A stretch of DNA of 20,767 bases from the UHGV virus genome UHGV-2126844, one strand, 5' to 3'. Shown here in pieces: positions 1 to 7,462 of this stretch. The stretch's first letter is position 1. The number at the start of each line of letters is the position of its first letter. Source of the DNA: a virus. The translations under genes and the position numbers were made by a program. The notes under the pieces were generated by a model. It was given only the letters and a program-made list of their open reading frames with translations, had not been told where the DNA came from and made no database searches.

Positions 1-1284
1 TTACTTCTTCGCCTCTGCAACCACTTTACTACCCACGCCGCGGTTATTGTATTCCCACATGCGGTTGTAGTTAGTGTCATTCAGATTGCGCTGTATTTCG
101 TCGTTATCATCTACGCTGCCGGTATTACCCGCAAACGGACGATTAGAGATCACCGCATCGGCCCACGGTTTAGCCGTGTTAAAACCTTCGTTGATGGCGC
201 TATCACGGATCACCACCTGACCGTTGGTATTGGCATCAACATCCAGCGAGCGGCCCAGTTGCGCCACACCATCACCGAAAGCATTGAAACGGCTGTTTAC
301 GGCGAGGAAACCGTAGTAAATGTTGGACAGCGTAGCCGGTGCAAACACATACGCTTCTTGCTGAGTACGTGAGTTCACCACGCGGAATTCGGTGTTATCG
401 AACACCACTGCGCCGCGACCAGAAACGATATCCACATCCCCTTCAATGTAGCTGTTGGTCACCAGCGTACGCGGCTGACGATTTGTTTCCAGACGGTTCT
501 GCACACCGCTGTTGGTGACAAAGAAGGTGTTCTGACGACCGAGAATGTTAACGTTGTTAATCTGTACCTGGTCACCATCAGTACGCAGTGCCACCGCCGG
601 ATGGTTACCTGCATCTACGCTATCGCCCAGCGTGTTTTCGATGGTCAGATTTTGCAGTTGCAGGCCATTGTTTTGTGACCAGAAGACCGCAGAGCAGAGA
701 ACACCGATACTGTCGCTGCGTTTGCTCTGGCAGCTATCGTACATATACCACGCTGGTTTACCTGGCATATATTTGCCGCGCGGGTTGACGTCGTGACGCC
801 AGTCGGCAGGGCTCATGCCACCATCAAGGGAAAGCCCAATCTTCACATCAATCGGTTTTTCACCTGTACCGTACAGAGTAATTCCACCCGGAGCGGCAGG
901 GACATATACCGTTCCCTGATACTCACCAGGCATCACGGCAATATACTGGCGCTTGTTGGTACGCTTGATAATTGCCGCATCTACCGCCGCCTGAATCGTG
1001 GTATGCGTTACACCTTGAGTGCCCGCCGGGCCGACAACAAAGTCAGGTTGCGCAGGCAGGGTAATCGGGGAAGGATTCCACGCTGCAGCACCTGGTGTCA
1101 GGGATGCAAAATAGTGTTGAGCATCGAAATTCTGCGCTTCTTTTGCCGACAGAATCGGGCGAGAAGAGGTACCAGGCGCGGTTTGATCAGAAGGACGTTG
1201 ATCGGGCGGGGTTGAGCTACAGGCGGTCAGCGTCACGCCAAAAGCCAATGCCAGCGCCAGACGGGAAACTGAAAATGTGTTCAC
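1..1284 (-). CDS. ybhC: YbhC-like pectinesterase-family lipoprotein; host gene flanking the lambda attachment site
   Basis: Complete 427-aa ORF on the minus strand (ATG at 1284, TAA at 1-3). N-terminal signal peptide with lipobox LTAC. Sequence recognised as E. coli YbhC from memory; position immediately beside the lambda att core is consistent. Confidence 0.88.
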   Translation of the reverse strand: MNTFSVSRLALALAFGVTLTACSSTPPDQRPSDQTAPGTSSRPILSAKEAQNFDAQHYFASLTPGAAAWNPSPITLPAQPDFVVGPAGTQGVTHTTIQAAVDAAIIKRTNKRQYIAVMPGEYQGTVYVPAAPGGITLYGTGEKPIDVKIGLSLDGGMSPADWRHDVNPRGKYMPGKPAWYMYDSCQSKRSDSIGVLCSAVFWSQNNGLQLQNLTIENTLGDSVDAGNHPAVALRTDGDQVQINNVNILGRQNTFFVTNSGVQNRLETNRQPRTLVTNSYIEGDVDIVSGRGAVVFDNTEFRVVNSRTQQEAYVFAPATLSNIYYGFLAVNSRFNAFGDGVAQLGRSLDVDANTNGQVVIRDSAINEGFNTAKPWADAVISNRPFAGNTGSVDDNDEIQRNLNDTNYNRMWEYNNRGVGSKVVAEAKK

Positions 1285-1315: not shown

Positions 1316-1420
1316 AATCCGTTGAAGCCTGCTTTTTTATACTAAGTTGGCATTATAAAAAAGCATTGCTTATCAATTTGTTGCAACGAACAGGTCACTA
1401 TCAGTCAAAATAAAATCATT
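1316..1420. other. attL: Prophage attL (B-O-P'): lambda core at 1331-1345, then P' arm with IHF-like site (1371-1383) and Int arm-type repeats (about 1393-1423)
   Basis: Exact 15-bp lambda common core GCTTTTTTATACTAA. Left flank (gaagcct) matches the bacterial B arm; right flank (gttggcattataaaaaagcattgcttatcaatttgttgcaacgaacaggtcactatcagtcaaaataaaatcatt) matches the lambda P' arm. int lies immediately adjacent. Confidence 0.88.
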
Positions 1421-2489
1421 ATTTGATTTCAATTTTGTCCCACTCCCTGCCTCTGTCATCACGATACTGTGATGCCATGGTGTCCGACTTATGCCCGAGA
1501 AGATGTTGAGCAAATTTATCGCTTATCTGCTTCTCATAGAGTCTTGCAGACAAACTGCGCAACTCGTGAAAGGTTGGCGGATCCCCTTCGAAGGAGAGAC
1601 CTGATGCTTTTCGTGCGCGCATAAAATACCTTGATACTGTGCCGGATGAAAGCGGTTCACGACGAGTAGATGCAATTATGGTTTCTCCGCCAAGAATCTT
1701 TTTGCATTTATCAAGTGTTTCCTTCATTGATATCCCGAGAGCATCAACATGCAATGTTGTTGGGATGGCAATTTTTACGCCTGTTTTGCTTTGCTCGACA
1801 TAAAGATATCCATCTACGATATCAGACCACTTCATTTCGCATAAATCACCAACTCGCTGCCCGGTAACAACAGCCAGTTCCATTGCAAGTCTAAGCCAAC
1901 ATGGTGATGATTCTGCTGCTTGATAAATTTTCAGGTATTCGTCAGCCGTAAGTCTTGATCTCCTTACCTCTGATTTTGCAGCGCGAGTGGCTGCGACCGG
2001 GTTTGTTGTTATATGGCCTTCAGCCATAGCCTCTCGGAATGCATCGCTCAGTGTTGATCTGATTAACTTGGCTGATGCCGCCTTTCCCTCGTCTATGTAT
2101 CCATTGAGCATTGCCGCAATTTCTTTTGTGGTGATGTCTTCAAGTGGAGCATCAGGCAGACCCCTCCTTATTGCTTTAATTTTGCTCATGTAATTTATGA
2201 GTGTCTTCTGCTTGATTCCTCTGCTGGCCAGGATTTTTTCGTAGCGATCAAGCCATGAATGTAACGTAACGGAATTATCACTGTTGATTCTCGCTGTCAG
2301 AGGCTTGTGTTTGTGTCCTGAAAATAACTCAATGTTGGCCTGTATAGCTTCAGTGATTGCGATTCGCCTGTCTCGGCCTAATCCAAACTCTTTACCCGTC
2401 CTTGGGTCCCTGTAGCAGTAATATCCATTGTTTCTTATATAAAGGTTAGGGGGTAAATCCCGGCGCTCATGACTTCGCCTTCTTCCCAT
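1419..2489 (-). CDS. int: Lambda-type tyrosine integrase Int (356 aa)
   Basis: Full-length ORF ending at the P' arm. Translation matches lambda Int as recalled (MGRRRSHERRDLPPNLYIRNNGYYCYRDPRTGKEFGLGRD...; catalytic region HELRSLSARLY ... LLGHKSDTMASQYRDDRG). Confidence 0.97.
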   Translation of the reverse strand: MGRRRSHERRDLPPNLYIRNNGYYCYRDPRTGKEFGLGRDRRIAITEAIQANIELFSGHKHKPLTARINSDNSVTLHSWLDRYEKILASRGIKQKTLINYMSKIKAIRRGLPDAPLEDITTKEIAAMLNGYIDEGKAASAKLIRSTLSDAFREAMAEGHITTNPVAATRAAKSEVRRSRLTADEYLKIYQAAESSPCWLRLAMELAVVTGQRVGDLCEMKWSDIVDGYLYVEQSKTGVKIAIPTTLHVDALGISMKETLDKCKKILGGETIIASTRREPLSSGTVSRYFMRARKASGLSFEGDPPTFHELRSLSARLYEKQISDKFAQHLLGHKSDTMASQYRDDRGREWDKIEIK

Positions 2490-2685
2490 TTCTGATCCTC
2501 TTCAAAAGGCTACCTGTTACTGGTCGATTTAAGTCAACCTTTACCGCTGATTCGTGGAACAGATATTCTCTTCCATCCTTAACCGGAGGAGGGAATATCC
2601 TGCATTCGCGCACCCATCGACGAACTGTTTCAAGGCTTCTTGGGCGTCGCTGGCGAGCGTTCCACTCCTGAAGTGTCAAGTACAT
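2467..2685 (-). CDS. xis: Excisionase Xis (72 aa)
   Basis: 72-aa ORF overlapping the int start, as in lambda. Translation MYLTLQEWNARQRRPRSLETVRRWVRECRIFPPPVKDGREYLFHESAVKVDLNRPV... matches lambda Xis as recalled. Confidence 0.95.
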   Translation of the reverse strand: MYLTLQEWNARQRRPRSLETVRRWVRECRIFPPPVKDGREYLFHESAVKVDLNRPVTGSLLKRIRNGKKAKS

Positions 2686-2711
2686 CGCAAAGTCTCCGCA
2701 ATTACACGCAA

Positions 2712-2733
2712 GAAAAAACCGCCATCAGGCGGC
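2712..2733 (-). terminator. Candidate rho-independent terminator on the minus strand (stem ccgcc/ggcgg, loop tgat, then UUUUUUCUU) overlapping the stop of the 55-aa ORF, just upstream of xis
   Basis: Read directly: plus strand aaaaaaccgccatcaggcgg; the minus-strand RNA forms a GC hairpin followed by a U-run. Strength and function not tested. Confidence 0.45.
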
Positions 2734-2892
2734 TTGGTGTTCTTTCAGTTCTTCAATTCGAATATTGGTTATGTCTGCATGTGCTATCTGCGCCCATATC
2801 ATCCAGTGGTCATAGCAGTCATTGATGTTCTCTGCTTCGATAACTCTGTTGAATGGTTCTCCATTCCATTCACCTGTGACTCGGAAGTGCAT
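2725..2892 (-). CDS. Small 55-aa ORF in the position and length of lambda's unnamed ORF upstream of xis
   Basis: ATG at 2892 preceded by GGAG; translation MHFRVTGEWNGEPFNRVIEAENINDCYDHWMIWAQIAHADITNIRIEELKEHQAA. Below the 60-aa cut-off of the supplied track; found by manual translation. Offset from int/xis matches my recollection of the lambda map. Confidence 0.55.
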   Translation of the reverse strand: MHFRVTGEWNGEPFNRVIEAENINDCYDHWMIWAQIAHADITNIRIEELKEHQAA

Positions 2893-2974
2893 TTATCATC
2901 TCCATAAAACAAAACTCGCCGTAGCGAGTTCAGATATAATTTCCACCAAAGGCAGTAGTTGCTGATGCTAAGAA

Positions 2975-3403
2975 TTATTCAATATCTATTCCTGTAATAT
3001 CTTTTATCTTTTTCCTTGCAAAGCCTTTTGCTAGTGATTTTGAAACACTTATTAGTGTACTAATTCCCTCATCCTTAAAGTTTGTTTTTATAGTTTGCCA
3101 GACCTCCTTTTGACGCAAGTCAGCAATAAAATCATGCCCTCTTGCTGTCAACCTCAGTGGTACTTCGATCCAACTATATCCAACACCTTCCCCTAACTCG
3201 TTGGACATTATATGACCGAACCCAGGTTTTCCATCAACCCTGACTATTAATTCGTAGTCGCATAATAATCGCATATGGAAAATAAAATTTTGGTCATATC
3301 TATTAAAGCCATTATCCTCTAGTTCACTAAGCATCGTGTCAGGGCCATGAGTTTTTTCGAATGCGATAAGTAGATCTTTTAGATATTGCTGGTCTAATTT
3401 CAT
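2975..3403 (-). CDS. Hypothetical 142-aa cytoplasmic protein, non-lambda; family not assignable by eye
   Basis: Clean ORF with a strong RBS (GGAGG, 6 nt before ATG at 3403). Occupies the position where lambda has ea8.5. No signal peptide or transmembrane segment. Translation MKLDQQYLKDLLIAFEKTHGPDTMLSELEDNGF... not recognised. Confidence 0.6.
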   Translation of the reverse strand: MKLDQQYLKDLLIAFEKTHGPDTMLSELEDNGFNRYDQNFIFHMRLLCDYELIVRVDGKPGFGHIMSNELGEGVGYSWIEVPLRLTARGHDFIADLRQKEVWQTIKTNFKDEGISTLISVSKSLAKGFARKKIKDITGIDIE

Positions 3404-3431
3404 TGCCGCCTCCGTGACATGTCACAGAGAT

Positions 3432-3770
3432 TTATATCATTAATTTTGTTTCGTGCCAGCCTTTGGTCACCCAGCATTGTGAGTCACCATTACACGGGCA
3501 TGAATTAACAGGAACTCTCTCGCCGCACTTACCGCAACGTTTTCTGCTGATCGATTTTATACGCCAGCGCACACGTGCATCATCCTGGCGGCTCAGTAAC
3601 GCGATGTACTCACCAAACTCGTAAGGCGCATGCCTGAAGCGGCGCGTGGCTCAGTTACGATCCAGCATTTCAATTTCCTGAGCATCAAGTACAAGCTCCA
3701 GCTTACGCATACCGGATGATGCTTGCTTGGCTCTCTGATCGACTTTGCGCTCTGCTGATGATTTAGCCAT
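3432..3770 (-). pseudogene. 112-codon frame encoding a ribbon-helix-helix-like N-terminus and a C-terminal zinc ribbon (CGKCG...CPCN...C), interrupted by an in-frame TGA at 3651-3653; nonsense-disrupted gene or two very small genes
   Basis: Manual translation: MAKSSAERKVDQRAKQASSGMRKLELVLDAQEIEMLDRN-stop-ATRRFRHAPYEFGEYIALLSRQDDARVRWRIKSISRKRCGKCGERVPVNSCPCNGDSQCWVTKGWHETKLMI. RBS AGGAAAAG before ATG at 3770. No in-frame ATG after the TGA; only a GTG about 46 codons from the end. Confidence 0.4.
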
Positions 3771-3964
3771 TCTGCTTTTCCTGCATTAGGAGAAAGACAA
3801 TCATGGCGGCGCGGATACTTCCGGTATCTTTTTACTCGATATTACCCTTCAATGGCACATACAAGAAGAGAGCCATCAACAGGAGTGAGTGAGGAATCGA
3901 CAACCAGCAACTCTTAATTATCTATAGTGTCGTATTTGCTTCATAAAATATGGCGAATAACACA

Positions 3965-3998
3965 AAGCCCGCAGCAGCTCATTGTGCGGGCTTTTCTT
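3965..3998 (-). terminator. Candidate intrinsic terminator hairpin (9-bp stem aagcccgca/tgcgggctt, 11-nt loop) between the 204-aa gene and the downstream operon; U-rich on both strands
   Basis: Read directly: plus aagcccgcagcagctcattgtgcgggcttttctt; minus-strand RNA has the same stem followed by uuugugUUaUU. Confidence 0.45.
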
Positions 3999-4063
3999 AT
4001 ACATACTTCCTAGAGATAATTCTATGGAGGCATTAAATTAATACTGTCATTGGTAATATCATA

Positions 4064-4678
4064 TTATCTAAAAGTCTTTCCACTTTTAACGTCTAGGTAT
4101 ATTCTGTTCGACAACGTCATTCCTCCGCAATATGTGAAATAGATGTTTTTCCCCTTATTGCTTGATGCCATCCACCCTCCGATTTCCTTAAAGTCGCTTT
4201 CCGTGCAGACCCCTTCGTTTATTAACTTCCTAGCTGCCGAAGAAAACTCTTTTTTGTATATACGGTAGTCATCAGATCCTTTGATTAAAGTATCATCTCC
4301 GCTCGCATTTTCAGCAGGATCTGATGGCCTTTCACTGCTAAGATCACTAAGTTTAACCCATTCTGAAAACTTGCCATTGACGATTCCGTTTTTTCTTGTG
4401 CAGGATTTATTACCTTCTTTAATATATTCGCTTTCCCCTCCCACACATGAGGCTGAATATGGCTCAGTTATACGAACCCATTCACCTTTTTTTTCTAGAA
4501 AATCTACGCCTTCCCTGAAAAATAGTTTCCCAGCCACTCCACATTTACTTGAAGGGCAGGTATGTCTTTCCGTTCGATCAACAACAACCCAAAGTCTTGA
4601 TTCATTTTTTGCCATTGCCGATGGTATTTGAGATGAGACAATTAACGTAAGCCCTAAAATTAGTATTGATTTTTTCAT
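4064..4678 (-). CDS. Secreted or periplasmic cysteine-rich hypothetical protein (204 aa) with a cleavable signal peptide; prophage cargo
   Basis: N-terminus MKKSILILGLTLIVSSQIPSAMA-KNES is a typical Sec signal peptide with an AxA cleavage site. Mature part has 7 Cys and two similar ...GxW/FxEWV+... segments. RBS AAGGAA before ATG. Terminator-like hairpin downstream. Not a lambda gene. Confidence 0.65.
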   Translation of the reverse strand: MKKSILILGLTLIVSSQIPSAMAKNESRLWVVVDRTERHTCPSSKCGVAGKLFFREGVDFLEKKGEWVRITEPYSASCVGGESEYIKEGNKSCTRKNGIVNGKFSEWVKLSDLSSERPSDPAENASGDDTLIKGSDDYRIYKKEFSSAARKLINEGVCTESDFKEIGGWMASSNKGKNIYFTYCGGMTLSNRIYLDVKSGKTFR

Positions 4679-4976
4679 TGTAATTTCCTTTTACTTTTTA
4701 CAAAGCGTTTAATCATGGCTGATTATCTTTAAGCGTAGTAACAGCCTTGTGCGAAACATGTTACCAAATCGCCATTTCAGTGTATCCGCAGTTAGGCTGC
4801 CACTTCAAGGATTCCTAATTACATGGTACGTAAGCGTAAAATCCCGTTGGTTGTCGGGTAATAACTCTGATCAAATCTCCCTTGTCTTTTGCTCTTACGT
4901 ATGCAGCTCTTGTGTATTCAACCCAGGCCTCCAGTTCAGCAATACGCTTACTTCCATCCGAGATAACACCTTCTAC

Positions 4977-5228
4977 TCACGCTGCTCGTTGAGTTTTGAT
5001 TTTTGCTGTCTCCAGCTCAACACGCAGTTTCCTCACCGTTAGCGCAATATCCTCGTTCTCCTGGTCGCGGCGTTTGATGTACTGCTGGTTTCTTTCCCGT
5101 TCATCCAGCAGTGTCAGCACAATCGATGGTGTTACCAGCTCATGGAAAAGGTCCGCGTCAAATCCCCAGTTGTCATGCATTGCCTGCTCTGCCGCTTCAC
5201 GCAGTGCCTGAGAGTGAATTACGCTCAC
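4977..5228 (-). CDS. 83-aa ORF at the ea22 position, translationally coupled to orf73 (GTGA overlap); the same frame continues for 53 codons past an in-frame TGA (4977-4979) to TAG at 4815-4817
   Basis: Track ORF MSVIHSQALREAAEQAMHDNWGFDADLFHELV...KTQRAA (the M is a GTG start). Manual translation after the TGA: VEGVISDGSKRIAELEAWVEYTRAAYVRAKDKGDLIRVITRQPTGFYAYVPCN. Assignment to ea22 is by position only. Confidence 0.5.
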   Translation of the reverse strand: MSVIHSQALREAAEQAMHDNWGFDADLFHELVTPSIVLTLLDERERNQQYIKRRDQENEDIALTVRKLRVELETAKIKTQRAA

Positions 5229-5446
5229 TTCGAACCTCTCTGTTTACTGATAAGTTCCAGATCCTCCTGGCAACTTGCACAAGTCCGACAACCCTGAACG
5301 GCCAGGCGTCTTCGTTCATCTATCGGATCGCCACACTCACAACAATGAGTGGCAGATATAGCCTGGTGGTTCAGGCGGCGCATTTTTATTGCTGTGTTGC
5401 GCTGTAATTCTTCAATTTCTGATGCTGAATCAATGATGTCTGCCAT
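5225..5446 (-). CDS. orf73: TraR/DksA-family C4 zinc-finger protein (73 aa), lambda Orf73-like
   Basis: 73-aa ORF with CxxC...CxxC (CCECGDPIDERRRLAVQGCRTCASCQ), characteristic of TraR-like RNA-polymerase-binding proteins. Size and position between the ea22 region and exo match lambda orf73 as recalled. Confidence 0.8.
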   Translation of the reverse strand: MADIIDSASEIEELQRNTAIKMRRLNHQAISATHCCECGDPIDERRRLAVQGCRTCASCQEDLELISKQRGSK

Positions 5447-5495
5447 CTTTCATTAATCCCTGAATTGTTGGTTAATACGCTTGAGGGTGAATGCG

Positions 5496-5522
5496 AATAA
5501 TAAAAAAGGAGCCTGTAGCTCC
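5496..5522 (-). terminator. Candidate rho-independent terminator on the minus strand (stem ggagc/gctcc, then UUUUUUAUUAUU) between the 5545-5826 ORF and orf73; possibly a tL-type terminator of the early-left operon
   Basis: Read directly: plus aataataaaaaaggagcctgtagctcc; minus RNA hairpin followed by a U-run. Identity with a named lambda terminator not verified. Confidence 0.45.
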
Positions 5523-5544
5523 CTGATGATTTTGCTTTTCATGT

Positions 5545-5826
5545 TCACCGTTCCTTAAAAACGCCGTTTAACATGCCGATTGCTAGACTTAAATGAGTCG
5601 GTGTGAATCCCATCAGCGTTACCGTTTCGCGGTGCTTCTTCAGTACGCTACGGCAAATGTCATCGACGTTTTTATCCGGAAACTGCTGTCTGGCTTTTTT
5701 GATTTCAGAATTAGCCTGACGGGCAATGCTGCGAAGGGCGTTTTCCTGCTGAGGTGTCACTGAACAAGCCCCATGTCGGCAAGCATAAGCACACAGAATA
5801 TGAAGCCCGCTGCCAGAAAAATGCAT
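5545..5826 (-). CDS. Hypothetical early-left ORF (up to 93 aa; true start uncertain) in the orf61 region
   Basis: Track ORF ending ...ETVTLMGFTPTHLSLAIGMLNGVFKER. Overlapped in another frame by a 27-aa hydrophobic ORF (MTTTECIFLAAGFIFCVLMLADMGLVQ, 5757-5840) that is start/stop-coupled to orf63. I could not reconcile either frame with lambda orf61 from memory. Confidence 0.35.
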   Translation of the reverse strand: MHFSGSGLHILCAYACRHGACSVTPQQENALRSIARQANSEIKKARQQFPDKNVDDICRSVLKKHRETVTLMGFTPTHLSLAIGMLNGVFKER

Positions 5827-5836
5827 TCAGTGGTTG

Positions 5837-6028
5837 TCATACCTGGTCTCTCTCATCTGCTTCTGCTTTCGCCACCATCATTTCCAGTTTTTGTGAAAGG
5901 GATGTGGCTAACGTATGAAATTCTTCGTCTGTTTCTACTGGTATTGGCACAAACCTGATTCCAATTTGAGCAAGGCTATGTGCCATCTCGATACTCGTTC
6001 TTAACTCAACAGGAGATGCTTTGTGCAT
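5837..6028 (-). CDS. Lambda orf63-like small protein (63 aa)
   Basis: 63-aa ORF. Position and length relative to exo match lambda orf63 as recalled; the sequence itself was not recalled independently. Confidence 0.55.
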   Translation of the reverse strand: MHKASPVELRTSIEMAHSLAQIGIRFVPIPVETDEEFHTLATSLSQKLEMMVAKAEADERDQV

Positions 6029-6183
6029 ACAGCCCCTCGTTTATTATTTATCTCCTCAGCCAGCCGCTGTGCTTTCAGTGGATTTCGGATAACAGAAAGG
6101 CCGGGAAATACCCAGCCTCGCTTTGTAACGGAGTAGACGAAAGTGATTGCGCCTACCCGGATATTATCGTGAGGATGCGTCAT
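6001..6183 (-). CDS. Lambda orf60a-like small protein (60 aa)
   Basis: The ORF overlaps the exo start by 4 nt when started at the ATG at 6183 ([29 protein letters not shown]...). The track's 62-aa version starts two codons upstream. Length and position match lambda orf60a as recalled. Confidence 0.55.
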
Positions 6184-6860
6184 CGCCATTGCTCCCCAAA
6201 TACAAAACCAATTTCAGCCAGTGCCTCGTCCATTTTTTCGATGAACACCGGCACCATCTCGTCAAAACTCGCCATGTACTTTTCATCCCGCTCAACCACG
6301 ACATAATGCAGTCCTTCACGCTTCATACGCGGGTCATAGTTGGCAAAGTACCAGGCATCTTTTCGTGTCACCCACATGCTGTACTGCACCTGGGCCATGT
6401 AAGCCGACTTTATGGCCTCGAAACCACCGAGCCGGAACTTCATGAAATCCCGGGAGGTAAACGGGCATTTCAGCTCAAGGCCATTGCCGTCACTGCATAA
6501 ACCATCGGGAGAGCAGGCGGTGCGCATACTTTCGTCGCGATAGATGATCGGGGATTCAGTAACATTCACGCCGGAAGTGAATTCAAACAGGGTTCTGGCG
6601 TCGTTCTCGTACTGTTTTCCCCATGCCAGCGCCTTAGCATTAACTTCCGGAGCCACACCGGTGCAAACCTCAGCCAGCAGGGTGTGGAAGTAGGACATTT
6701 TCATGTCAGGCCACTTCTTTCCTGAGCGGGGCTTGGCTATCACGTTGTGAACTTCTGAAGCGGTGATGACGCCGAGCCGTAATTTGTGCCATGCATCATC
6801 CCCCTGTTCGACAGCTCTCACGTCGATCCCGGTACGCTGCAGGATAATGTCCGGTGTCAT
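6180..6860 (-). CDS. exo: Lambda exonuclease (Red-alpha), 226 aa
   Basis: Full-length ORF; translation [65 protein letters not shown]... matches lambda Exo as recalled. Confidence 0.96.
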
Positions 6861-7300
6861 GCTGCCACCTTCTGCTCAGTGGCTTTCTGTTTCAGGAATC
6901 CAAGAGCTTTCACTGCTTCGGCCTGTGTCAGTTCTGACGATGCGCGAATGTCGCGGCGAAATATCTGGGAACAGAGCGGCAATAAGTCGTCATCCCATGT
7001 TTTGTCCAGGGCAATCAGCAGAGTGTTAATCTCCTGCATGGTTTCATCGTTAACCGGAGTAATGTCGCGTTCCGGCTGACGTTCTGCGGTGTATGCGGTA
7101 TTTTCGACAATGCGCTCGGCTTCATCCTTGTCATAGATACCAGCAAATCCGAAGGCCAGACGGGCACACTGAATCATGGCTTTATGCCGTAACATCCGTT
7201 TGGGATGCGACTGCCACGGCCCCGTAATTTCTCTGCCTTCGCGGGTTTTGAATGGTTCGCGGCGGCATTCATCCATCCACTCGGTAACGCAGATCGGATG
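6857..7300 (-). pseudogene. bet: 5'-truncated bet (Red-beta): only about the C-terminal 140-145 codons remain; homology ends near 7300 with an in-frame TAG immediately upstream
   Basis: Minus-frame translation ...NHPICVTEWMDECRREPFKTREGREITGPWQSHPKRMLRHKAMIQCARLAFG...KATEQKVAA matches the C-terminal half of lambda Bet. Upstream of about 7300 the sequence is unrelated and AT-rich. Confidence 0.85.
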
Positions 7301-7462
7301 ATTACCGGTTCGCTACCAGGGAAGAACGGGAAGGAAAGGTGAGCACGAATCTGATTTTCAAGGAGTGTCGCCAGAGTGCCGCGATGAAGCGGGTGTTGGC
7401 ATTTTATCGCGGCAATTTTCAATAGACTATGTACATAAAAATATCATTTTTTTAATACATGT

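Follow-up and report, generated by a model that had tools for sequence, protein, structure and literature searches.

Both gene families treated here have been catalogued before, and RefSeq annotates the exact sequences under study; the finding is in this respect an ordinary one. The first is the phrog_536 family ('transcriptional regulator'). Its phage members are epsilon15 gp49, phiV10 p55, TL-2011b gp20 and ZF40 gp22, and N15 gp46 is a homologue by profile comparison (hhalign 99%, E 3e-18). A search of 5.8 billion proteins returned 299 homologues from Escherichia, Salmonella, Citrobacter, Klebsiella and others, and almost every one of them is 112 aa long. They share a basic N-terminal arm and a Cys-rich C-terminus, and the residues C79-x2-C82 and C91-x-C93 (CxxC-x8-CxC) are invariant in the close phrog_536 family; in N15 gp46, Phe takes the place of the Cys at position 93. 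The second family is DUF2513 (Pfam PF10711; PHROG 585), and our literature search on DUF2513 and PF10711 found no paper. The other systems with which the locus invites comparison are the type II toxin-antitoxin pairs having a ribbon-helix-helix antitoxin and the moron or cargo slots of lambda-type phages.

We analysed a stretch of 20,767 nt, the viral genome UHGV-2126844 (hereafter, the window), in which a preliminary description had pointed to a two-gene cassette beside xis. We consider it quite probable that the xis-proximal part of the foreign DNA, 2975-3770, is the relic of a module of the epsilon15/N15/ZF40 type, comprising a dead phrog_536 gene, a palindrome and an intact DUF2513 gene carried as cargo in a variable slot.

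Setting and extent of the foreign block

The window starts in ybhC, which leads into a lambda-like prophage at att-lambda. We compared the window with lambda 27000-36000 by blastn and observed the following. Window 1331-2940, which includes the attP core, int, xis and the 55-aa ORF, corresponds to lambda 27724-29333 at 97.9% identity; exo and bet lie further along the prophage, past the 55-aa ORF. The lambda match is back from window 4930, equal to lambda 30094 inside ea22, and window 4930-7305 corresponds to lambda 30094-32473. By this alignment, the int-proximal arm of the lambda-like prophage contains a mosaic substitution, made up of the DNA in between (Table 1). The earlier reading, that the sequence is lambda-like through int, xis and the 55-aa ORF and then diverges, with non-lambda accessory DNA near xis in place of ea8.5, is borne out by blastn, which confirmed the imported fragment. 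The extent of 2893-3770 given for the replacement, however, has to be corrected to 2941-4929.

The DNA of E. coli ATCC 8739 and of many other strains is 100% identical to the window over the region of interest, and ≥80% of window 2893-3900 is present in 141 of 5,426 complete E. coli genomes. The ATCC 8739 annotation was transferred with the window coordinate taken as the locus coordinate minus 1108. Among relatives, IS1 insertions were found within the block. The block also holds a umuD-like stub, situated between the pseudogene and the hairpin at 3959-3992 and annotated as UmuD-like in phage Chlobot, and a gene for a 204-aa protein, for which Pfam gave hints of SH3_3 and LPAM_1, both weak.

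Table 1. Coordinates of features in the window and of palindrome copies in related phages
Sequence	Feature	Position	Strand	Remarks
Window	int	1419-2489		
Window	xis	2467-2685		
Window	55-aa ORF	2725-2892		
Window	Non-lambda substitution block	2941-4929		1,989 bp; replaces lambda 29334-30093 (ea8.5 and part of ea22); blastn
Window	DUF2513 gene, intact, 142 aa	2975-3403	-	Winged helix-turn-helix and C-terminal helices (predicted); Pfam PF10711, phrog_585
Window	GGAGG Shine-Dalgarno of the DUF2513 gene	3409-3413	-	5 nt ahead of ATG; read from sequence
Window	Perfect 12-bp palindrome GTGACATGTCAC	3414-3425	.	Within the 28-nt spacer; sole copy in the window
Window	phrog_536 pseudogene (epsilon15 gp49 / phiV10 p55 / N15 gp46 family)	3432-3770	-	Full-length phrog_536 match
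Window	In-frame TGA, codon 40	3651-3653	-	Near-invariant Cys (TGT/TGC) in homologues
Window	umuD-like remnant, 22 codons	3845-3910	-	PGAP on identical ATCC 8739 DNA: 'DNA repair protein, incomplete'
Window	Candidate intrinsic terminator, hairpin and T-rich tail (agcccgca...tgcgggct ttgtgtt)	3959-3992	-	After the 204-aa gene; read from sequence
Window	Gene for 204-aa signal-peptide protein	4064-4678	-	phrog_8310, E 4e-136; inside the same non-lambda block
epsilon15	Palindrome	39612		After gp49
epsilon15	Palindrome	2142		After the terminase-large terminator, facing a variable convergent gene
epsilon15	Palindrome	19517		On the gp18 stop codon
phiV10	Palindromes	2262, 19493		Positions equivalent to epsilon15
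phiV10	One-mismatch palindrome	Genome-end junction		After the family gene, equivalent to epsilon15
N15	Palindrome GTGACTGGTCAC	39269		On the gp46 stop, then GGAGG and gp47
N15	Palindrome	28550		Intergenic
N15	Palindrome	33237		Inside repA
ZF40	Palindrome	One copy		After gp22

The upstream gene and its lesions

Translated from 3770 to 3432, the small ORF consists of 39 codons, a TGA and 72 further in-frame codons. With the stop read through, residues 1-111 match positions 2-114 of the 115-position phrog_536 profile (E 7.8e-48). Across the aligned intact homologues Cys40 is near-invariant; its codon in their DNA is TGT, rarely TGC, and TGA in the window. RefSeq/PGAP annotates the identical DNA of ATCC 8739 as a hypothetical protein, pseudogene, with an 'internal stop'. 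The small ORF had been taken as a gene in the preliminary description, a reading that is overturned by the in-frame TGA and the PGAP call. The 39-aa stub has a PHROG match of its own (34005), so truncated copies have previously been annotated in phage genomes. These observations indicate that the window copy is a dead copy of the family and not a functional member. For the region that had been read as ribbon-helix-helix and zinc ribbon, the AlphaFold monomer is of low confidence (pLDDT 60) and lacks a strand at 23-28; comparison of the family with CopG gave an hhalign probability of 0.3. Pfam matched no family in 29 members of the small-gene family, and a PDB sequence search with the family returned no match.

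We surveyed lesions in 39 E. coli-clade IMG/VR loci carrying the cassette. Codon 40 was TGA in 19 and TGT in 18 of them. The small gene was disrupted in 23 of the 39, by at least five independent lesions; those other than the TGA were a C79* nonsense mutation, a 1-nt deletion, a replacement of the 5' half and a deletion of the 5' half. Conserved residues of the small gene were also substituted in TGA haplotypes (C99Y, G80R and R66H). The DUF2513 gene was intact in 37 of the same 39 loci; a C-terminal frameshift in it was seen at two loci. Such a combination of a frequently broken gene and a mostly intact neighbor is the signature of a pseudogene beside a maintained gene. In a fortieth locus, unscorable for either gene, an IS1 end abuts the Shine-Dalgarno at the expected palindrome site. 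To judge from these lesions, the small gene is in decay throughout the cassette-bearing E. coli clade, by TGT to TGA at Cys40 in the case of the window.

The DUF2513 gene

The description of the downstream gene as a 142-aa ORF with a strong ribosome-binding site agrees with the sequence (Table 1), as does the gap of 28 nt between the small-gene stop codon and the DUF2513 start. The statement that its product has no recognisable family does not hold. The protein scores 42.9 bits against Pfam DUF2513 (cut-off 29.6; profile positions 1-100 of 100) and matches phrog_585 over residues 1-135 (E 2.3e-34), and RefSeq names the product of the identical DNA 'DUF2513 domain-containing protein'. DUF2513 was the only Pfam family above threshold, and no toxin family was among the matches. 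The NCBIfam search gave no match, and the PDB sequence search found no relative of this protein.

The structural model is confident and shows a three-helix bundle with a beta-hairpin wing, matching solved winged helix-turn-helix regulators (MarR/PadR/TubR-like). Matches among the BFVD viral structures were solely uncharacterised or PadR-like. The modelled fold is a DNA-binding one, neither toxin-like nor effector-like, and by its similarity DUF2513 probably binds DNA. N15 gp47 was considered as a DUF2513 relative and rejected (hhalign probability 0.6%, unrelated).

At 46-77% identity, the DUF2513 subfamily has members in Citrobacter, Serratia, Pectobacterium, Yersinia, Cronobacter, Pantoea and Erwinia. 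Between genera, pN was 0.15-0.17 vs a pS of 0.75-0.85, with synonymous sites saturated. Such values indicate strong purifying selection on the gene in Citrobacter, Serratia, Cronobacter, Pantoea and Yersinia. Within E. coli, pN/pS did not separate the two genes (0.61 vs 0.57, the value for DUF2513 being ∼0.57).

Pairing of the two genes and the cargo slot

The two genes had been presented as a pair, and a survey across prophages upholds this in part. In epsilon15-like prophages of Cronobacter, the 112-aa family gene lies next to DUF2513 across a 27-nt gap, the palindrome stands between the two genes, and terminase-small comes after DUF2513; a 112-aa gene, a gap of ∼28 nt and DUF2513 are also arranged in this way in other Enterobacterales prophages. 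Altogether, some twelve different contexts outside E. coli (IMG/VR) have a full-length phrog_536 gene directly upstream of DUF2513. The pairing, therefore, recurs in several genera, but DUF2513 also occurs without the partner. The gene upstream of it is dATP/dGTP pyrophosphohydrolase-like in Citrobacter, in the nin region, and an unrelated 120-aa gene near the integrase in Serratia. Both of these loci retain ∼30 nt of the phrog_536 3' end (…GGCTGGCATGAGACAAAATTG…) together with the palindrome. No trace of the phrog_536 gene accompanies the most divergent DUF2513 genes (<60% identity).

Seen from the other side, DUF2513 was the next gene after phrog_536 in 0 of 48 species-level loci. The slot behind phrog_536 is hypervariable, and the next gene was terminase-small (7 loci), AbiTii, HigB, DUF4224, a UmuD-like gene behind a LexA box or one of various unknowns. 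This list of occupants also supports the earlier statement that the region is a hotspot for accessory genes. Judged from these neighborhoods, the linkage of phrog_536 to DUF2513 is ancestral for one DUF2513 subfamily, yet it is one-sided. Such one-sidedness points to a cargo gene that once came to rest behind a conserved anchor and was afterwards carried elsewhere along with parts of it, and does not fit an obligate two-component system.

A palindrome linked to phrog_536

The spacer between the two genes carries a perfect 12-bp palindrome (Table 1). The motif GTGAC-N2-GTCAC lies on the stop codon, or ≤6 nt past it, in 27 of 48 species-level phrog_536 loci, and is kept at loci of 47-50% protein identity (Erwinia, Pantoea rodasii and Xenorhabdus). 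Its half-sites do not vary, while its central dinucleotide can be AT, GT, AC, CT or AG. In Xenorhabdus the palindrome is outside the reading frame, and so its conservation does not come from coding. The DNA past the palindrome is unrelated between loci. Every copy in epsilon15 has a stop codon on one side and an intrinsic terminator on the other. By chance, a motif of 10 specified bases is expected in ∼0.04 copies per 40 kb. A literature search for the palindrome sequence found no paper.

At the RNA level, a predicted 9-bp hairpin, CUCUGUGA-CAUG-UCACGGAG, extends the palindrome (-10.8 kcal/mol; z -1.84), and the GGAG of the DUF2513 ribosome-binding site is paired within it. This hairpin suggests a translational coupling of DUF2513 to the upstream gene. 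The extension is weaker in Cronobacter, where the spacer was read by eye from the sequence alone.

Several identities were considered for the palindrome and its linked gene. The inverted repeats IR1-4 of N15, which form the SopB centromere, read GTGCGACC-NN-GGTCGCAC (PMC7205306) and are a different sequence. The annotated repressor operators of epsilon15 are ATTACC-N5-GGTAAT, which removes a prophage repressor operator from the list. An operator for DUF2513 itself is unlikely, as most copies are in phages without DUF2513. The position of phrog_536 before terminase in epsilon15 and phiV10 gave rise to the idea of a Q-type late antiterminator; this was rejected, because both N15 and ZF40 encode Q-like genes distinct from it and have the family gene at other positions. 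Rfam around the Klebsiella palindrome and terminator gave a sub-threshold rseX match alone.

Expression

A search for sigma-70-like promoters on the minus strand of 2650-4750 detected none. The hairpin at 3959-3992 likely separates the 204-aa gene from the cassette as an intrinsic terminator; the terminator scan at this site flagged the opposite strand only. Because no promoter was detected, we propose read-through from pL: by analogy with lambda biology, the cassette is most likely transcribed only within the N-antiterminated pL transcript. Transcription from pL only would be a poor fit for a defence function expressed in the lysogen.

Discussion

In our reconstruction, the module would have three parts: a gene of the gp49/gp46 family (phrog_536), dead here; the palindrome that accompanies the 3' end of this gene; and, past the palindrome, DUF2513 as the cargo of a variable slot. 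DUF2513 is probably a dimeric winged-helix DNA-binding protein whose role is that of a lone accessory regulator and not of a toxin. Its transcription probably comes about by read-through within the N-antiterminated pL transcript. Because the palindrome hairpin buries the DUF2513 Shine-Dalgarno, we propose that translation of DUF2513 may in the past have been coupled to that of the upstream gene.

The preliminary description had seen in the cassette a resemblance to toxin-antitoxin or abortive-infection modules, with a small DNA-binding antitoxin or regulator followed by the 142-aa protein as effector. A compact co-directional pair with a 28-nt gap that is found repeatedly in several genera would suit such a module, and AbiTii and HigB occupy the same slot in other prophages. 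The resemblance, however, does not survive closer inspection, and we regard this reading as very improbable. The putative regulator is a pseudogene, broken in 23 of 39 loci beside an intact downstream gene, and the association is one-sided, with DUF2513 standing alone behind unrelated genes in Citrobacter and Serratia. The modelled fold of the supposed effector is that of a winged-helix regulator with no toxin-like match, and the cassette lies behind a predicted terminator with no promoter detected. PADLOC-DB v2 (E ≤ 0.1) returned no match for either cassette protein or for two neighboring ORFs, and NCBIfam was likewise without a match. Even less probable, in our estimate hardly credible, is that the TGA is recoded as selenocysteine or read through, leaving the small ORF with a full-length product. 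In its favour, TGA in place of a conserved Cys codon follows the classic Sec/Cys pattern, as many as 19 of 39 loci have the allele, and most TGA alleles are free of any other lesion. The allele also occurs on three haplotype backgrounds; at least one of these is an evident recombinant, and recombination accounts for this distribution most simply, or alternatively the allele could be tolerated or kept. Against recoding, the 81 nt around and after the TGA, searched for a SECIS-like structure, fold no better than shuffles (z -0.07), and Rfam over 2400-5200 gave no match besides a chance Thr_leader (E 0.78). The same gene has, moreover, been knocked out independently elsewhere in the clade. On these three results we rejected selenocysteine and read-through. 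The downstream conserved residues mutated in the TGA haplotypes also count against it, and read-through would result in Trp at an invariant Cys.

A further alternative is that no part of the cassette, not even DUF2513, has a function, and that all of it is hitch-hiking DNA heading for deletion. The DUF2513 pN/pS within E. coli, the C-terminal frameshift at two loci, the loss of the gene by deletion in some relatives (L028-30 and L097) and the IS1 insertions taken by the block are compatible with this, but DUF2513 remained intact at 37 loci while its neighbor was broken at 23, and its subfamily is under strong purifying selection across five genera; we find this alternative distinctly improbable. 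Somewhat less so, but still unlikely, is a regulator-operator-target unit, in which the phrog_536 protein would bind the end-of-gene palindrome and control the next gene, the loss of the regulator here freeing DUF2513 from control or collapsing its expression. The palindrome is tightly linked to phrog_536 over 42-99% protein identity, out-of-frame cases included. In the window, and likewise in Cronobacter and N15, it is separated by 0-1 nt from the Shine-Dalgarno of the gene that follows, and invariant half-sites around a variable center are as expected for a candidate dimer site. However, the extra copies in epsilon15, phiV10 and N15 are beside terminators or in repA and not ahead of genes, the next gene differs from phage to phage and is unrelated, and the model of the small protein is of low confidence.

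Our preferred reading, the relic of an anchor gene with its palindrome and a cargo gene behind them, can be joined to a more general proposal, which we put forward tentatively as a possibility with the balance still against it. The phrog_536 protein and GTGAC-N2-GTCAC might be an undescribed cis/trans pair of temperate enterobacterial phages (epsilon15, phiV10, N15, ZF40 and many prophages). The protein would bind the palindrome between the final stop codon and the intrinsic terminator of a transcription unit, at the edge of the cargo slot, and would govern termination, the stability of the 3' end or how the cargo is expressed. We infer the binding from the tight linkage, and it is consistent with a dimeric DNA-binding protein. 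If the pair is real, the window holds a decaying copy of it, and DUF2513 is one cargo gene, possibly with an exclusion or regulatory role.

Nothing in these data indicates a new defence system. The decay of the neighbor and the retention of DUF2513 in the E. coli clade suggest that DUF2513 is the selected part. This gives functional tests a clean target, a single gene. The palindrome is a specific, testable lead on operon ends and cargo slots in epsilon15, phiV10 and N15.

Comparison with known systems

Within DUF2513 (PF10711; PHROG 585), the window protein is a regular member with nothing atypical. Its likeness to MarR, PadR, HxlR and TubR is at the level of the fold, with 8-20% identity, and we do not claim membership. 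It has no Pfam match to MarR or PadR, and its three C-terminal helices (87-137) are differently arranged.

The upstream gene resembles epsilon15 gp49, phiV10 p55, N15 gp46 and ZF40 gp22 in its 112 codons, its Cys motif and the palindrome after the stop. The window copy differs from the epsilon15 gp49 family by the nonsense codon at Cys40 and by its location in the lambda b-region by xis, instead of at the end of the early-right/nin region.

With type II toxin-antitoxin systems having a ribbon-helix-helix antitoxin, the locus shares two small co-directional genes, a short gap and an upstream small protein that looks DNA-binding. In contrast to those systems, it has no toxin family, the downstream protein has a predicted DNA-binding fold, the 'antitoxin' is dispensable, as it is broken in most loci, and the pairing is not reciprocal. 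The likeness to the moron or cargo slots of lambda-type phages lies in a conserved anchor followed by unrelated cargo (AbiTii, HigB, UmuD-like, DUF4224 and DUF2513), with a sharp boundary between the conserved and the variable part; the difference is that the boundary here is marked by a conserved 12-bp palindrome.

Variable DNA downstream of phrog_536 genes

Directly 3' of the phrog_536 homologues in the 48 species-level loci (L097–L144), we observed a hypervariable slot. It was occupied by AbiTii in Providencia and Proteus, by the HigB toxin in Xenorhabdus, or by DUF4224, a UmuD-like gene with a LexA box ahead of it, other small ORFs also preceded by LexA boxes, or terminase-small. It has the look of a hotspot for cargo and defence genes, defined by the phrog_536 anchor gene.

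In 27 of these 48 loci the stop codon of the gene is followed by a 12-bp palindrome, GTGAC-N2-GTCAC, which is present in 2–3 copies per phage genome (see table). An intrinsic terminator adjoins all the copies in epsilon15 and both perfect copies in phiV10, in each case at the boundary between conserved and variable DNA. Among the N15 copies, one is intergenic and one is located within repA. The SopB centromere of N15 and the repressor operator of epsilon15 were both considered as identities of the palindrome and rejected, as it is neither of these elements. A literature search for the palindrome gave nothing.

A conserved mini-ORF of 8 codons, M-x-D-E-F-D-G-F-stop, was also observed just 3' of the palindrome (loci L032, L102, L106, L107, L115 and others), between it and an intrinsic terminator and upstream of terminase-small. 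Its carriers are prophages of Klebsiella, Scandinavium, Superficieibacter and Buttiauxella. The mini-ORF may encode a leader peptide, or it may be what is left of a gene.

Positions of the features in the window and in the compared genomes
Feature	Source	Position	Strand	Remark
Palindrome	window	3414–3425
Palindrome	epsilon15 (L146)	2142, 19517, 39612
Palindrome	phiV10 (L145)	2262, 19493		two perfect copies
Palindrome	N15 (L228)	28550, 33237, 39269
Palindrome	ZF40 (L229)	3004
Repressor operator	epsilon15 (L146)	12–27		annotated
204-aa ORF	window	4064–4678	(-)	N-terminal signal peptide; within the non-lambda block
umuD-like stub, 22 codons	window	3845–3910	(-)	just upstream of the phrog_536 pseudogene
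IS1	ATCC 8739 (L001)	5899–6596		between the 204-aa gene and ea22
IS1	L174, NCTC9040			right at the DUF2513 RBS and the palindrome

Other genes and rearrangements of the non-lambda block

The 204-aa ORF, behind which lies its own terminator-like hairpin, matches phrog_8310, a PHROG of unknown function; Pfam gave weak SH3_3 and lipoprotein-signal hints and nothing more. The umuD-like stub is overlapped in the Phage Chlobot record by a 105-aa 'UmuD-like' CDS, which crosses the N-terminal part of the small phrog_536 ORF in a different frame and is probably an annotation artefact.

The insertion points of IS1 within the non-lambda block differ between strains, and the block of the window itself is without IS1. 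In some Escherichia loci (L028–L030 and L097), DUF2513 is wholly lost through a deletion that leaves the small gene fused at codon ∼109 to the lambda 55-aa ORF's end and terminator.

Operators of the epsilon15 repressor

The annotated repressor operator of epsilon15, ATTACC-N5-GGTAAT, is located immediately 5' of terminase-small, and the record contains more copies ahead of other late genes. This arrangement suggests that the late operons of epsilon15 are directly controlled by the repressor.
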